Of a stretch of 54,652 nt of DNA, positions 8,229-54,652 are shown in pieces. Source of the stretch: Patescibacteria group bacterium (GTDB lineage: Bacteria > Patescibacteriota > Patescibacteriia > UBA2591 > UBA6264); contig JAIPGN010000005.1 in assembly GCA_021735685.1 (NCBI GenBank), forward strand, positions 1-54,652, given 5' to 3'. The position numbers were made by a program, and so were the translations under genes. The notes under the pieces were generated by a model, which saw only the letters and a list, made by a program, of their open reading frames with translations, had not been told where the DNA came from and ran no database searches. Position 1 is the stretch's first letter. Every line of letters starts with the position of its first letter.

Positions 8229-8300
8229 GGGCATGTAGCTCAGAGGTAGAGCACTTGACTTATAATCAAGCGGTCCTGGGTTCGATCCCCAGCATGCCCA
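8229..8300 (+). tRNA. tRNA-Ile (anticodon UAU)
   Basis: GGGCATG/CATGCCC acceptor stem, CTTGA-CT TAT AA-TCAAG anticodon arm, GGTTCGA T-loop, discriminator A, CCA not encoded. Confidence 0.88.
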
Positions 8301-8380
8301 CTCCCTTTCAACAAAAATCACAATGTGGAGGTCAAACCCCCACAACATCCAAGTAAAGAAGAAAAAAATAACACAATAAT

Positions 8381-15452: not shown

Positions 15453-16748
15453 ATGAATCTAGAAATTAAGGGAGACAAAAAATTAAAAGGAACGGTAGTC
15501 ACCAATACCTCTAAAAATGCCGCTATGGGCTTAATGGCTGCTAGCCTTTTAAACAAGGGAACAACTCTTTTGCGACAAGTACCAAAAATTGAAGAGGTTA
15601 ACAGAATGATTGAAGTTTTGAGTAGTTTGGGAGTAAAGATACAATGGGTTCAAGACAATAATTTAAAAATTATCCCTCCTTCAAAAATATCTTTAGAAAA
15701 ACTTAATAAAAAATCAGCTATTAAAACTAGAAGTATTATCATGCTTTTGGGTCCGCTGATCCATGAATTCAAAAAATTCAAATTACCCCAACCGGGCGGT
15801 TGCAAGCTTGGTCGCCGCACTGTACGTCCTCACTTGTTTGCCTTGGAAAATCTAGGAGTTAAAATCGAAACCCGCTCCAAATATTATGAAGTTGCTCGCC
15901 AAAAACTAAAAGCTGCGGAAATAGTTCTTTACGAATCTGGAGACACCACCACGGAAAACGTTATTATGGCCGCCGCCAAAATTCCAGGCAAAACTACAAT
16001 TAAATTAGCTTCAGCCAACTATCAGGTTCAAGATCTTTGTCATTTTCTTTCTCTTTTGGGAGTTAAAATTAAGGGCATTGGCACCACCACTCTTACTATC
16101 AATGGTCAGCCAGAAATTCACAAAAATATAGAATATCATTTAAGCGAAGATCCAATAGAAAGTATGTTTTTTTTAGCAGTGAGCGCCACCACCAACTCTC
16201 CTTTATTGATCAAAAGATGTCCGATTGATTTCCTTGAGCTAGAGCTTCTAAAACTAGAGAAAATGAATTTTAAATTCAAAATAATTAAGAGATATAAGGC
16301 TAAAAATAAATTTACTAACCTAGTAGATATTAAAACTTATCCTTCTCAATTACAAGCCTTAGAGGAAAAAATATACGCCCGACCCTTTCCTGGTCTAAAT
16401 ATTGATAATTTGCCCTTTTTTGTACCCATCGCCACTCAAGCTAAAGGACAAACTCTTATTCACGACTGGGTTTACGAACATCGAGCCATTTATTATACTG
16501 AATTATCAAAACTAGGAGCAAAAATAATTTTAGCCGACCCTTACCGAGTTTACATTGATGGCCCCAGCAAACTTAAAGCTGCGGAAATTATTTGCCCTTC
16601 TGCTCTCCGGCCAGCAACAATTATACTTATCGCCATGCTCAATGCTAAGGGAACCTCAATTTTACGCAACATCTATTCTATTAATCGTGGTTACGAAAAT
16701 CTGAGCGAACGCTTGAATAATTTAGGGGCAGAAATTAAAATAATATAA
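15453..16748 (+). CDS. murA: UDP-N-acetylglucosamine 1-carboxyvinyltransferase
   Basis: SKNAA, PGGCKLGRR (catalytic Cys), TENVIMAA, PFPG, RGYE. Confidence 0.92.
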   Translation: MNLEIKGDKKLKGTVVTNTSKNAAMGLMAASLLNKGTTLLRQVPKIEEVNRMIEVLSSLGVKIQWVQDNNLKIIPPSKISLEKLNKKSAIKTRSIIMLLGPLIHEFKKFKLPQPGGCKLGRRTVRPHLFALENLGVKIETRSKYYEVARQKLKAAEIVLYESGDTTTENVIMAAAKIPGKTTIKLASANYQVQDLCHFLSLLGVKIKGIGTTTLTINGQPEIHKNIEYHLSEDPIESMFFLAVSATTNSPLLIKRCPIDFLELELLKLEKMNFKFKIIKRYKAKNKFTNLVDIKTYPSQLQALEEKIYARPFPGLNIDNLPFFVPIATQAKGQTLIHDWVYEHRAIYYTELSKLGAKIILADPYRVYIDGPSKLKAAEIICPSALRPATIILIAMLNAKGTSILRNIYSINRGYENLSERLNNLGAEIKII

Positions 16749-16840
16749 AAACCGTTAAAAAATTGACGCTTTTAAAAAATCACCCCAAAAAACCTTTCTC
16801 TGAGTAGTTTTTAAAGAAGCAGTTTTTGGGGTCTGGTCCC
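16748..16840 (+). repeat. Dispersed intergenic repeat ending in the GGGGTCTGG(T/C)CCC palindrome
   Basis: CGTTAAAAAATTGACGCTTTT..GAAGCAGTTTTTGGGGTCTGGTCCC; homologous to 26547-26694 and to the reverse strand of 52344-52578. Confidence 0.8.
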
Positions 16841-26546: not shown

Positions 26547-26694
26547 TTTGGGATCTGGCCCCAACTAAAAACGTTAAAAAACTAACGGTTTTGAAAAATT
26601 GCCATGGAAACAAGCACAGAGAGCTGGTTTCCGAGAAGCAGTTTTTGGGGTCTGGCCCCAAAAAAAGTGTTAAAAAATTGACGCTTTTAGGAAA
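26547..26694 (+). repeat. Dispersed intergenic repeat, about 1.5 tandem units
   Basis: Two GGG(G/A)TCTGGCCCC ends and two (C/T)GTTAAAAAA-x-T-x-ACG heads, period about 100 nt. Confidence 0.8.
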
Positions 26695-51689: not shown

Positions 51690-51926
51690 ATGCCTAGATT
51701 AGATGGAACTGGTCCTCAAGGACAAGGTCCAACAACCGGCCGAGGCTTTGGTCCCTGCGGAGCTGGATTCAGACGAGGCTGTGGCTATGGTCGTGGCTGG
51801 GGAAGACAAAGATTCATTTCCCCTAAAAATGAATTAAGCGCCTTAGAACAAGAAGAAAAGGCTTTGCAAGAAGAATTAGAGGCAATCCAAGAAGAAAAGA
51901 AGGCCTTAAAGGACCAGCAAAAATAA
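51690..51926 (+). CDS. DUF5320-like Gly/Arg-rich small protein
   Basis: MPRLDGTGPQGQGPTTGRGFGPC..GRG plus a coiled-coil tail; GAGG SD. Confidence 0.8.
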   Translation: MPRLDGTGPQGQGPTTGRGFGPCGAGFRRGCGYGRGWGRQRFISPKNELSALEQEEKALQEELEAIQEEKKALKDQQK

Positions 51927-51985
51927 AAGAAGGCTTGGGAGTCCAGTCCTTCGCTCAAAGCAAAGGGCTGGTCAGCCTTCTTTCT
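51927..51985 (+). terminator. Long hairpin/terminator
   Basis: AAGAAGGCT/AGCCTTCTT outer stem and CCAGTCCTT/AAGGGCTGG inner stem, followed by Ts. Confidence 0.6.
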
Positions 51986-52024
51986 TATTAAATTAACACA
52001 AAAAATAAAAATAATCAACTTTAT

Positions 52025-52303
52025 ATGCCTAGACCTAGACTTTGTCGAAAAATTAAATTCAACCCGCACGTTACCTATTTTAAACCCCAAGGCGTGCCCA
52101 TGAGAAATTTAAAAATAATTAAATTGAGCCTAGAAGAGGCCGAGGCTTTGCGTCTCAAGAACATTGAAAGGCTGGAACAAATAAAATGCGCTCAGAAAAT
52201 GAATACTTCGCAAAGTACTTTTCAAAGAATTCTAACCTCTGCCTACCAAAAAACCTCTTTAGCGCTGATCAAAGGCTACGCCATCCAAATCATCAACAAA
52301 TAA
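52025..52303 (+). CDS. DUF134 family HTH DNA-binding protein
   Basis: MPRPRLCRKI..FKPQGVP..EEAEALRLK..Q..A..M..SQSTFQRIL.SA..K. Confidence 0.85.
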   Translation: MPRPRLCRKIKFNPHVTYFKPQGVPMRNLKIIKLSLEEAEALRLKNIERLEQIKCAQKMNTSQSTFQRILTSAYQKTSLALIKGYAIQIINK

Positions 52304-52315
52304 AATAATCAAATT

Positions 52316-52340
52316 ATGTACGAGGTTCGACCTCGTACAT
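52316..52340. repeat. Perfect 11-bp-arm palindrome (REP-like)
   Basis: ATGTACGAGGT-TCG-ACCTCGTACAT. Confidence 0.75.
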
Positions 52341-52343
52341 TAT

Positions 52344-52578
52344 TTTTTGAGGGGCCAGACCCCAAAAACCGCTTCCTTGAAACCGAGACAGAGAAAGGGT
52401 TCTGGGAACGATTTTTCAAAAACGTTAATTTTTTAACGCTTTTCTGATTTGCTGAAAAATATTTTGAGGGGCCAGACCCCAAAAACCGCTTCCTTGAAAC
52501 CGAGACAGAGAAAGGGTTCTGGGAACGATTTTTCAAAAACGTTAATTTTCTAACGCTTTTCTGATTTGCTGAAAAATA
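52344..52578 (-). repeat. Two tandem 117-bp copies of the dispersed repeat
   Basis: Units begin at 52349 and 52466 and differ by one substitution as far as I could see; both carry GGGGCCAGACCCC. Confidence 0.9.
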
Positions 52579-52610
52579 TGGACGAAATGAAATAAAGCTA
52601 AACATACGCT

Positions 52611-52916
52611 GTTAGGCGAAGATTCTCTGAGCAGAACGGCGTTGGTAACATCGGGCTTAAGGGAAGTTTTTTGCGTAGCAAAAAATTTAGGAGAGCGAAG
52701 TGCAACGAGCGAACCCTTTAAGCCCTGTTAAATCCGCCGACGAATGAAGTGAGGAGAGTGCAACGTGCCCGAGCGGAATGAAATGGAGCGAAGGAGTAAT
52801 TTTGAGAGGCGTCCTATCCAGAGAACAAAGTGATACATAACGGACAAGAATCAAGGGGACAATTTCTTTTTATCAAGAGCGAAGCTCCTTTTATTATTAC
52901 ATCAAGGGGCAATTTC
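52611..52916 (+). other. Structured attC/REP-like element, left flank of the radical-SAM cassette
   Basis: GTTAGGC; stem CGGCG..TAACA..GGGCTTAAGGG / CCCTTTAAGCCC-TGTTA..CGCCG; inner TTTTTTGC-GTA-GCAAAAAA; then TAATTTTGAGAGGC and two AAGGGG(A)CAATTTC. Confidence 0.55.
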
Positions 52917-52918
52917 GT

Positions 52919-53953
52919 TTAGTTAGTTATTTCTAAAACTTCTTTTAAACAGTTTGAATTTAGAACCCTCATAACCTTACATCCCCCTCTGCATTTTGAG
53001 AAGTGATCACAAGAATAGCAATTATCTTTAAATTTCATATTTCGAAATTTGTTTAAGCCTTTTTCCCAGATTTTTTTAAATGATTTTTTCCTAATATTTC
53101 CTTCAATGTAATCATTTTCTTCAAAAATTGGACAAGCCATTATATCTCCATTTGCCATAATCGCACAAGAAGTCCAACCACATCCGCAAAAAAATGAGCC
53201 ATTTCTGATTTTTTTATCCCAGTCTCCTAAATATCCTGCTTCAGAACAAATATCAATTCTGTATTTTTTCTTGTTTTCTTCTATGAAGTGGAATAAATCT
53301 AATATTTTATTTTTGTCTAAATGAAGCCAATCCTTATTCTTTGCTCTACCTTCAGGAAGGATAATATTAATATACCAATGATTACATCCGATGGAAAAAA
53401 TCAAATCTCTTAATTGTTCCAGTTCTTTTAAATTAGATTTATACACTGTTGTACAAACACTTATTTTAGGCGTTTTTATCTTTTTAAAATATTTTATTGC
53501 ATTAATGGTATTATCAAAATTATTATTTTTGCCTCTTATTTTCTTATGACTATATTTTAACCCATCTAAACTAACCATAACCGCATTCAATTTTAAATTT
53601 TCTAATTCTTTTTTAAAATTAGAAATGAGTGAACAATTAGTTGATAATCCTATTTTCAAACCTTTATTTTTGGCATAAGATAATACTTCAAAAATGTCTT
53701 TTCTTAATAGTGGTTCTCCTCCTGTGGCAATAAAATATTTTACTCCCATGAGAGCCATATCATCAATTGCTTTTTTTATTTCTTCGTAAGCTAATTCATC
53801 CTTTAATGGTTTTCCAGCATTAACCATACAATGCTCACAAGAAAAATTACATGAATGGGTAGAAATCCACTGTACTGAAATGGGCGCTTCAAGTAAACCG
53901 ATTTTATTTCTTATTCTAAAGATTGATTCTTTTATCTTGCTTTGTGAAATCAT
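52919..53953 (-). CDS. Radical SAM protein with SPASM domain
   Basis: CNFSCEHC, TGGEPLLR, STN, SLDG; C-terminal CGCG..C..DIMACP..C..C..C.GGC. Confidence 0.92.
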   Translation of the reverse strand: MISQSKIKESIFRIRNKIGLLEAPISVQWISTHSCNFSCEHCMVNAGKPLKDELAYEEIKKAIDDMALMGVKYFIATGGEPLLRKDIFEVLSYAKNKGLKIGLSTNCSLISNFKKELENLKLNAVMVSLDGLKYSHKKIRGKNNNFDNTINAIKYFKKIKTPKISVCTTVYKSNLKELEQLRDLIFSIGCNHWYINIILPEGRAKNKDWLHLDKNKILDLFHFIEENKKKYRIDICSEAGYLGDWDKKIRNGSFFCGCGWTSCAIMANGDIMACPIFEENDYIEGNIRKKSFKKIWEKGLNKFRNMKFKDNCYSCDHFSKCRGGCKVMRVLNSNCLKEVLEITN

Positions 53954-53978
53954 AAGAATGAAGTATAAGGGGAGTTAT

Positions 53979-54380
53979 TTATTTGTTTCTTAAATTCTCA
54001 AGACAATTATTTATACAATCTCTTGTTGCATTAGTTATTTCTTGAGTAGTATTTCTACACATTTCATAACATTGTTCATGGAGAGGATCAATCATAGCTA
54101 CTCCAGCAGTTCTTTCACCACCTGCACCTATGTACCAAAATCCTAAAACAAAGATAATACCTGCTGGGATAAAAAAAGCGATACTCGCGTATTTGAATGC
54201 TCTAAATGTATCAAATTTTTTGACTTTTTTTGTGATGAAAAATGTAATTAAACCAATAGCTAATGGAATCATCATAATTAAGCCTGTAGATGGTTCCTTG
54301 AATAAAACGAATATGCTGAAACCTAACCAAATTAGATTCAATACAGTTAGTATTCCAACAAATATTTTTTGACCATTCAT
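53979..54380 (-). CDS. Hypothetical 3-TM protein with a Cys-rich C-terminal tail
   Basis: Three hydrophobic helices, then CYEMC..CINNC. Confidence 0.75.
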   Translation of the reverse strand: MNGQKIFVGILTVLNLIWLGFSIFVLFKEPSTGLIMMIPLAIGLITFFITKKVKKFDTFRAFKYASIAFFIPAGIIFVLGFWYIGAGGERTAGVAMIDPLHEQCYEMCRNTTQEITNATRDCINNCLENLRNK

Positions 54381-54443
54381 AATATTATTCTTATTAATTA
54401 GCTTCTATTTAAATATTCCGGTGACTTCAAATTGAGTTGAATA

Positions 54444-54652
54444 GAGATTGCCCCTTTCATAGTTTAAGAAATTGTCCCCCTTCTACTTTTTAGCCTCTCA
54501 AAATTATTGGATTTAATGGGCGGCGGTATGATCCGACGTCCTGAAGAAATTGTAGCACAATTTCGAAAGGATGTTGGATATACCGCAGTTAGACGACGTC
54601 GCGTAGCGAGGAGTCTAACAAGGCGAAGCCGCCGCCCATTAGCCAACGAGCG
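54444..54652 (-). other. Structured attC/REP-like element, right flank of the cassette (inverted relative to the left element)
   Basis: Minus strand reads hairpin, TTAAATCC, TAATTTTGAGAGGC, AAGGGGGACAATTTC, AAGGGGCAATCTC; GTTAGAC/GTCTAAC pair. Confidence 0.55.

Follow-up and report, generated by a model that had tools for sequence, protein, structure and literature searches.

Near one end of contig JAIPGN010000005.1 of a Patescibacteria group bacterium (assembly GCA_021735685.1), two genes lie between inverted copies of one ordered set of short motifs, and the locus raises the question of what kind of unit is bracketed in this way and how such a unit might move. The stretch of DNA analyzed, hereafter the window, comprises 54,652 nt (positions 1 to 54,652 of the forward strand). 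A first-pass annotation, made from the sequence alone, had drawn the unit at 52727-54516 and described it as mobile or invertible cargo, possibly belonging to an undescribed gene-capture system. We consider it likely that the segment from 54516 down to 52649 on the minus strand, 1,868 bp long, represents a single gene cassette of a site-specific capture system resembling integrons. The unit was observed to be discrete, with a structured site, a crossover position, a circular footprint, and complementarity from one cassette end to the other, and an array plus recombinase was observed in relatives. Relatives of the cassette are found in DPANN archaea (Pacearchaeota, Woesearchaeota).

The unit, its recombination site, and the pairing of its ends

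The four annotated motifs were present at both ends in inverted order, namely TTAAATCC, TAATTTTGAGAGGC, AAGGGG(G)ACAATTTC, and AAGGGGCAAT(T/C)TC. The first occurs at 52728-52735 (+) and 54516-54509 (-), and the second is exact at 52797-52810 (+) and 54493-54506 (-), with no further exact copy in the window; AAGGGGACAATTTC at 52853-52866 has the counterpart AGGGGGACAATTTC at 54468-54481 (-), and AAGGGGCAATTTC at 52904-52916 the counterpart AAGGGGCAATCTC at 54444-54456 (-). A large, GC-rich hairpin does lie outside each motif set, as seen from the fold on the right (z = -3.96) and an 85-bit covariance match on the left. The spacers are indeed unequal, the inverted repeat (IR) being ~25 nt from the inner motif at the 5' end versus 57 nt at the 3' end, because the 3' module contains an extra branch hairpin. 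The features of the two ends, read from the 5' end of the cassette, are:

54509..54516, minus strand: TTAAATCC, the cassette's first bases and 3' half of the R' box (G|TTRRRY type), placed by the homology stop and by complementarity to R''
54493..54506, minus strand: IR5, TAATTTTGAGAGGC, 5' arm of the outer stem, an exact inverted copy of 52797-52810 (also from the fold)
54468..54482, minus strand: M2f-1, AAGGGGGACAATTTC, 5' arm of the second outer stem (fold)
54444..54456, minus strand: M2f-2, AAGGGGCAATCTC, 5' arm of the outermost stem (fold)
52904..52916, minus strand: M2r-2, GAAATTGCCCCTT as read on this strand, 3' arm of the outermost stem (fold)
52853..52866, minus strand: M2r-1, GAAATTGTCCCCTT as read on this strand, 3' arm of the second outer stem (fold)
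52811..52845, minus strand: branch hairpin, 3' module only, closing stem GTCC...GGAC (fold)
52797..52810, minus strand: IR3, GCCTCTCAAAATTA as read on this strand, 3' arm of the outer stem (inverted repeat; fold)
52737..52793, minus strand: variable linker with a hairpin, between IR3 and R'', differing among copies of the same cassette
52649..52736, minus strand: attC-like recombination site, consisting of R'' GGATTTAAC (52735-52727), A, L'' GGGCTTAAAGGG, a three-way variable part, L' CCCTTAAGCCC, and GATG (52652-52649)

The limits of the unit were read from its copies elsewhere. One 1,770-nt Logan contig was identical to window 52774-54543, and in soda-lake, marine, biofilm, and oil-field metagenomes the cargo genes were ~90% identical, with alignments ending at 52794 and 54516 and unlike sequence beyond. 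Five contigs (L002-L006), whose radical SAM proteins are 87-89% identical to that of the window, align to 54516-52794 (1.72 kb) at 85.5-88.5% identity and then diverge, L006 extending to 52719. Position 54516 was the exact homology stop for these contigs and for contigs of the unrelated metagenome runs X3, X5, X10, and X17; overall, the right limit was 54516 in every context and the left limit 52794 in all but one. The 10 nt TTAAATCCAA before IR5 travel with the unit, and 3 nt past IR3 are also inside its conserved part. The annotated right limit, 54516, thus stands, whereas the left one, 52727, is only the edge of the R'' box, and the unit defined by its crossovers continues to 52649 (-). That the unit is mobile cargo is borne out by its being discrete and recurring in five other contig contexts and several metagenomes. 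Exact-protein matches of its radical SAM protein and of the neighboring DUF134 protein gave only short contigs from the same sample, none of which extends the window to the right.

The first-pass annotation had named an inverted arrangement unique to this place as an outcome contrary to its proposal; a motif search instead found the same ordered modules around at least 19 other cassettes in other contigs, whose cargoes are unrelated, comprise one to three genes, and face either way. The arrangement is thus not due to chance. The end modules were not found in viral contigs. Conserved end modules around such varied cargo could be a trace of cassette making. A second family of inner motifs, GGGGAGTTC / GAACTCCCC, replaces or accompanies AAGGGGGACAATTTC in L002 (2045-2133), L011 (7168-7285), L013, L015, L042, and L051 (4413-4505), and in L011, L013, and L028 motifs of this family form a cargo-cargo junction without an attC-like site. 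In runs X3 and X17, joints from 52865 to 54487 and from 52866 to 54467 fuse two inverted copies of the inner motif directly and may represent cassettes without cargo. Cassettes without an open reading frame (ORF), i.e., with abutting inner motifs, were absent from the fetched loci, the only possible hints being those in X3 and X17.

Genes bracketed by inverted repeats might also form an invertible segment of the inverton or shufflon type, flipped between the repeats. However, five independent copies share one orientation relative to the ends and the attC-like site, and the assembled contigs of X1, X2, X11, and X22 contained no inversion joints, which leaves inversion exceedingly improbable, and this part of the annotation was not supported.

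The unit is delimited by two crossovers, one between 54517 and 54516 upstream and one directly after the G at 52649 downstream. The 3' site of the window contains R''/R' boxes in the form of an imperfect palindrome (RYYYAAC ... GTTRRRY). Searching the region against Rfam, at gathering and at permissive thresholds, returned tRNAs and chance matches only. A covariance model built from related sites, R1, matched the window at 52641-52735 (85.2 bits, E 4.8e-15). Across related loci, R1 gave 56 matches (~50 distinct sites) in same-strand arrays of 3-8, with one match in the window; the sites per locus were eight in L019, seven in L048, five in L020, four in L030, and none in the bacterial relatives L045 and L047. 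A loose regular expression had also been tried; it returned many false sites inside genes and was replaced by a stem-filtered set and the covariance model. The stretch 52616-52773 reached 100-1000x depth in metagenomes such as X3, X10, and X17 and is therefore a member of a very abundant repeat family.

Downstream of the genes in each locus, the order is (A/T)TAAC, A, stem, variable middle, complementary stem, and GATG|TTA. Twenty-six unique related sites have the pattern (A/T)TAAC...GATG|TTA, where the window reads ATTTAAC ... GATG|TTACCA, its own 5' end being TTAAAT. On the gene strand, the unit starts as ...GATG|TTAAATCC in L002, L003, and L006 and as ...CCCA|TTAAATCC in the window. In the 26 sites, the ten bases past 'TAAC A' complemented the ten before 'GATG' at a mean of 8/10 positions (mostly 9-10), compared with 5.1 for cross pairs, and RNAalifold on 15 sites showed 17 pairs in the L-box stem, eight of them with compensatory changes; the inner L''/L' stem is preserved by structure rather than sequence. 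The A / GAT asymmetry between R and L boxes was constant throughout these 26 sites. Site length ranges from 24 to ~190 nt, the shortest sites (24-29 bp) being near-palindromes the size of dif.

The R'' box also carries information on the history of the cassette. Among 17 cassettes, the nine bases of R'' complemented the cassette's own first bases at 8.35/9 positions and those of its neighbor at 6.18/9; 13 of the 17 favored their own 5' end (Wilcoxon p = 0.002), the match was perfect in 12, and seven different box sequences were represented. In the window, R'' GGATTTAAC complements its own G|TTAAATCC at 9/9 positions but the present follower, TTACCAAC, at only 5/9. R'' thus matches the cassette's own first bases rather than those of its neighbor, which is the trace expected of a circular intermediate that recombined at G|TT. 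Excision would be expected to produce the circle junction ...CCCTTAAGCCCGATG|TTAAATCCAATAATTTTGAGAGGC (GATG|TTAAATCC) and the empty junction ...CCGCCGCCCA|TTACCAACGCC.

For folding, the two cassette ends were joined as they would be in a circle, with 52925 down to 52649 (3' end) followed by 54516 down to 54430 (5' end). The joined ends formed one long branched hairpin (minimum free energy -56.3 kcal/mol with DNA parameters, z = -6.9) in which every annotated motif pairs with its own inverted copy: GAAATTGCCCCTT with AAGGGGCAATCTC, AGAAATTGTCCCCTT with AAGGGGGACAATTTCT, GCCTCTCAAAATTA with TAATTTTGAGAGGC, and GGATTTAAC with GTTAAATCC, followed by the L stem. The four motifs are nested arms of one long split palindrome, i.e., the two halves of a split hairpin site. 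Most cassettes have GCCTCTCAAAATTA/TAATTTTGAGAGGC as their terminal repeats, but cassette L006a has GCTCCCGAAAAAA/TTTTTTCGGGAGC and L038 has GCCCTTGAAAAAA/TTTTTTCAAGGGC; the bases flanking M2f-1/M2r co-vary within a cassette (TTTCT/AGAAA versus TTTTA/TAAAA). M2f-2 was found in the radical-SAM cassette family only, the closing stem of the branch hairpin is GTTC...GAAC in the other module subfamily, and the linker (52737..52793) falls into two sequence families among cassette copies, with indel variants in run X2.

The generality of end pairing was assessed in 25 cassettes that were delimited by R1 matches and do not contain the window's repeat. Complementarity was counted by script because MAFFT alignment of the joined end modules mis-registers variant repeats. 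A perfect 12-nt repeat between the 5' leader and the 110 nt before the cassette's own R'' was found in 15 of the 25 cassettes, compared with 3 of 290 cross-cassette pairs (p = 1e-13). These repeats differ in sequence from cassette to cassette, and mostly start 9-10 nt past the crossover and end 38-62 nt before R''. Since the sequence is free while the pairing is kept, even within one array, selection appears to act on a base-paired stem and not on a fixed protein-binding sequence. The iterated protein-binding sites that had been proposed are therefore not supported for the terminal repeat.

The ends of the unit also resemble those of a non-autonomous transposon (a miniature inverted-repeat transposable element, MITE, with passenger genes), on which a transposase supplied in trans would bind the repeats as at Tn7 or Mu ends. 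Inverted ends, iterated motifs, unequal spacing, the lack of an enzyme inside, and the same ends around many cargoes in either orientation would all suit such an element. A transposon or MITE would, however, have its repeats at the very ends and be flanked by a duplication, and the cassette flanks contain no target-site duplication, while the 10 nt TTAAATCCAA outside IR5 move with the unit. In addition, the boundary is G|TTRRRY beside a structured site, the repeat sequence varies among cassettes of a single array with complementarity kept, and what lies near the arrays is a tyrosine recombinase, no transposase having been seen there. We regard transposition as quite improbable and return to the integron-like cassette.

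Recombinases and arrays in related loci

The absence of a recombinase from the unit, noted in the first-pass annotation, was upheld; its cargo consists of two other genes. The cognate enzyme that the annotation suggested seeking has a candidate outside the unit, encoded beside arrays in related loci. In L003, a 278-aa tyrosine recombinase is divergent from the first cassette, and divergent genes of this homologous group precede the first cassette junction by 70-600 bp in L003, L043, L007, L009, L042, and L030, the last five loci having been found solely via a DNA motif from the cassette 3' module. For more distant homologues (62-72% identity), array sites are on the divergent side, within ~0.9 kb (L048, L050) or ~2-4 kb (L049, L051). 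Altogether, arrays start beside a divergent tyrosine recombinase in ten fetched contig contexts (L003, L007, L009, L030, L042, L043, and L048-L051; eight distinct loci). L007 belongs to a Pacearchaeota and L009 to a Woesearchaeota metagenome-assembled genome (MAG) of GTDB, and all five GTDB matches to the module (5/5) were archaeal.

The insertion site closest to the recombinase is a short hairpin (stem 8-11 bp, its sequence co-varying between loci) followed by NNATG|TTA. Hairpin insertion ('attI') sites were located at:

L043, 935-965
L009, 2470-2495
L048, 9890-9925
L051, 9860-9895

L048/L050 and L049 have an identical recombinase (P0108) and the same site, and their sequences part directly after ATG|TTATA, as insertion at an attI site would give. 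These three loci share radA-side genes and differ in cassettes; L049 has ~five extra genes, including an Eco57I-type methyltransferase, exactly at the recombinase-proximal site.

The recombinase passes NF040815 (XerA_Arch) with 235.5 bits against a cutoff of 220, and it aligns with Pyrococcus XerA (PDB 4a8e) end to end and without gaps (1.5e-45). That likeness, together with the dif-sized near-palindromes of 24-29 bp and modules that contain no recombinase, would be expected of a Xer-mobilized module like the pdif modules of Acinetobacter plasmids, whose cargo would be flanked by inverted, dif-like core sites that the housekeeping XerA recognizes as duplex DNA. However, the array sites are direct and not inverted, sites of 24 to ~190 nt with co-varying stems point to a folded strand, and exchange takes place at the outer edge of the palindrome, at G|TT, rather than in a central 6-bp spacer between the 11-bp arms of a duplex. 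A Xer module of this kind is, in our estimation, improbable.

For the integron-like cassette, the following mechanism is conceivable. A XerA-like enzyme acting in trans would, we infer, catalyze the exchange. On an excised circle or single strand, the two cassette ends would zip into a ~360-nt hairpin with the crossover site inside, and the outer stems might stabilize this folded substrate, or draw the two cassette boundaries together in single-stranded DNA, for the recombinase. In the bacterium, the cassette would have entered next to a hairpin already resident at the margin of a small genome.

Cargo genes and the host locus

The cassette carries two genes and a promoter-like element:

54406..54413, minus strand: TTTAAATA, TATA-box-like element, 26-33 nt upstream of the first gene's ATG (sequence inspection)
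53979..54380, minus strand: cargo gene 1, a 133-aa membrane protein that has three hydrophobic segments and ends in a CX3C...CX3C tail (ORF)
52919..53953, minus strand: cargo gene 2, a 344-aa radical SAM enzyme with a SPASM domain (Pfam Radical_SAM 1.3e-25, SPASM 2.7e-09)

The 133-aa protein had no Pfam or NCBIfam family above cutoff, and its gene lies beside the radical SAM gene in all homologous cassettes. The best NCBIfam matches of the radical SAM protein were under cutoff (TIGR04133, 191 versus 425 bits). GC content was 0.281 in the radical SAM gene and 0.303 in the small gene, compared with 0.350 +/- 0.027 in 42 core ORFs, and GC at third codon positions (GC3) was 0.21 and 0.20, respectively, compared with 0.287 +/- 0.030. 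The cargo is thus more AT-rich than the core genes, as first described, by a modest 5-7 GC points or so. Similar TATA-like boxes occur at the same place in L002, L003, and L006, 25-35 nt before start codons; TTTAAATA may be the cassette's own archaeal-type promoter, a box of this kind being weak evidence in AT-rich DNA.

The inverted motifs lie directly outside the coding region on both sides, and the 3' module begins 3 nt past the radical SAM stop codon. This placement is what would be seen if they acted on RNA or transcription, either by pairing of untranslated regions for processing or stability, or as promoter, terminator, or regulator sites. However, relative to the modules the cargo can point either way, the 5' motifs precede the TATA-like box and would thus be excluded from the cassette's own transcript, and the modules keep a fixed register with the recombination site. 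A role at the RNA level is accordingly very improbable.

The rest of the window is bacterial, encoding RNase Y, DnaB, Mur ligase, NusA, Der, ClpP, and ClpB-type proteins. L045, a 658-kb contig from a bacterial relative (88% identity), is syntenic up to 52457 and different beyond; since it has neither cassette nor site, it provides no empty-site sequence. The cassette is flanked by:

54517..54652, minus strand: upstream three-way-junction hairpin, closed by ATGGGCGGCGG/CCGCCGCCCAT and cut by the window end (from the fold, z as above)
52576..52648, minus strand: flank past the crossover, TTACCAACGCC..., joining a host 117-bp repeat (contig breaks at 52648)

We read the upstream hairpin as a resident or preceding recombination site, presumably a divergent attC-like one. 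Its core, TAAT...A|TTA compared with TAAC...G|TTA in the family, looks like a compensated change at the crossover base. A hybrid-site signature was considered here and rejected, the R''-like arm pairing barely better with TTACCAACG (10 bp, 1-nt bulge) than with TTAAATCCAA (8 bp). In run X1, two different sequences of about equal depth adjoin the hairpin on its left, and the hairpin is present in X11/X22, which are without the cassette; window 54553-54652 had zero depth in X1 contigs and 30-42x in X11/X22. On the other side, these closer strains (X11/X22) have contigs that break at 52648|52649 and continue with another partner, such that strain variation falls exactly at the predicted junction, in support of a mobile unit as first annotated. 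Contigs of X11 and X10 match the window up to 52648 and have other sequence beyond.

An assembly chimera, in which a cassette from a co-occurring DPANN archaeon was joined to the bacterial contig via repeats, would concern the host and not the nature of the unit. In its favor, the join crosses two repeated elements (the 117-bp host repeat, present in several copies, and the attC-like hairpin, which is very abundant), the unitig that makes the link has a depth of 9 where the genome has 19.8 and the cassette 17, branches occur at 52715-52744, and the last 100 nt of the window are absent from X1 contigs. However, one X2 contig covers 52168-52744, from the DUF134 gene into the cassette 3' end, X1 and X11 both carry the end of the 117-bp repeat plus 52576-52648 up to the crossover, and the depth of the cassette follows that of the genome in X1 and X2. 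An X1 unitig also covers 52520-52675. We consider a chimera unlikely, and the cassette probably reached the bacterium by transfer from a co-occurring archaeon. More tentatively, we propose a distinct DPANN integron lineage, with a XerA-type integrase that has no IntI domain, a hairpin attI, and a cassette-specific split hairpin, one cassette of which would have crossed into a small-genome bacterium, probably of the Candidate Phyla Radiation (CPR).

Several other features of the locus were recorded. The 117-bp unit occurs as two tandem copies, 98-99% identical, at 52342-52575, starting with ATTTTGAGGGGCCAGACCCC, and as diverged copies in two other intergenic regions, 16748-16836 (-) and 26567-26688 (-). 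It is single-copy in X2 and L045, its depth is 3-6x that of the genome, and it has no Rfam match; it looks like a dispersed host repeat or a small RNA, and a 98-aa ORF at 52309-52605 is an artefact of it. A DUF5320-DUF134 gene pair (51690-52303) directly adjoins the insertion region, the DUF134 gene (52025-52303) ending in a perfect terminator-like hairpin (52311-52345). Where L045 has polysaccharide genes, a related bacterial strain (L047, 136-4892) encodes an HTH protein, an N6/N4 methyltransferase, and a DEAD/ResIII helicase beyond a conserved 299-aa ORF; this side of the locus is a variable hotspot. A tRNA-Ile with anticodon UAU, an uncommon bacterial means of reading AUA, was found at 8229-8301 by ARAGORN.

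Weighing against known capture systems

Several observations weigh against an integron-like cassette at this locus. The assembled contigs contained neither a circle junction nor an empty site, and the window encodes no tyrosine recombinase and has no second canonical site. The upstream hairpin has the three-way layout of attC-like sites and yet scores 2.6 bits with R1, and it ends ...CCCA|TTAAATCC, with A rather than G at the crossover. Copies of the same cassette differ in linker and attC sequence past 52794, where a simple integron model predicts otherwise; we attribute these differences to exchange inside the common 3' module. That the outer stems take part in recombination is only our inference. 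Finally, the array-linked recombinase fails the integron-integrase model TIGR02249 (182 versus 265 bits, in two stretches) and has 45 residues where Vibrio IntI (VchIntIA, 2a3v) has 90, and therefore does not contain the domain that defines IntI; it may simply be a housekeeping XerA.

Integrons are classic gene-capture platforms, and cassette formation and the folding of sites in the cell remain questions for the field. Like bacterial integrons (class 1 integrons, for example, or the VCR-repeat superintegron of Vibrio cholerae), the present system has a divergent tyrosine recombinase, an insertion site, and a same-strand cassette array. Its cassettes likewise end in an imperfect-palindrome site with R''/L''/L'/R' boxes, cross over at G|TT with first bases that complement their own R'', and carry strain-variable cargo, often of unknown function. 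In contrast to bacterial integrons, the recombinase has no IntI-specific domain, the attI-like site is a short hairpin where bacterial attI is duplex, and the folded site passes the crossover by way of a cassette-specific stem of 12-18 bp, in which the 5' leader pairs with a stretch located 40-60 nt before R''. A canonical attC site reaches 6 nt beyond the crossover and ends there. The cassette family found here has further stems beyond that of 12-18 bp, and its cargo, which can face either way, apparently has a TATA-type promoter of its own. A hairpin that spans the crossover, with free sequence and conserved pairing of the ends, is a structural feature that lends itself directly to testing.

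Arrays of attC sites have been reported from MAGs of archaea, Nanoarchaeota (DPANN) among them, mostly without detectable IntI, i.e., as clusters of attC sites lacking integron-integrases (CALIN) (Ghaly et al., 2022, PMC9668308). That work required the IntI-specific domain and reported six integrases among 75 genomes, and it proposed cassette transfer between archaea and bacteria and demonstrated it experimentally (PMC9668308). Thus, the kind of system is not undescribed, as the first-pass annotation had suspected, since integrons are known in Archaea. The array-linked enzyme found here is XerA-like, however, and would escape the IntI-domain criterion, and split outer stems are absent from that description. 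If a plain XerA-like enzyme serves large DPANN arrays, many 'integrase-less attC clusters' may have their integrase alongside, and a DPANN-type cassette in a small bacterial genome would, if true, be a natural case of archaea-to-bacteria transfer, which has so far been seen only in the laboratory (PMC9668308).

Like pdif modules and integrative mobile elements exploiting Xer (IMEX), the cassettes are cargo modules without their own recombinase that would be moved by a Xer-family enzyme. However, those elements rely on duplex dif-like sites of 28 bp, which pdif modules carry as inverted pairs, where the sites described here are structured hairpins in direct orientation with crossover at the edge. 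In the open-access literature, we found no paper that links XerA-like enzymes to cassette arrays or describes site stems spanning the crossover. The system has the cassettes and arrays of an integron, and differs in lacking the IntI domain and in having cargo ORFs in either orientation with TATA-like boxes (themselves weak evidence) in place of co-oriented promoterless genes. What seems undescribed is this variant, with a XerA-like integrase, hairpin attI sites, and a site hairpin that reaches across the crossover into the 5' end of the cassette.

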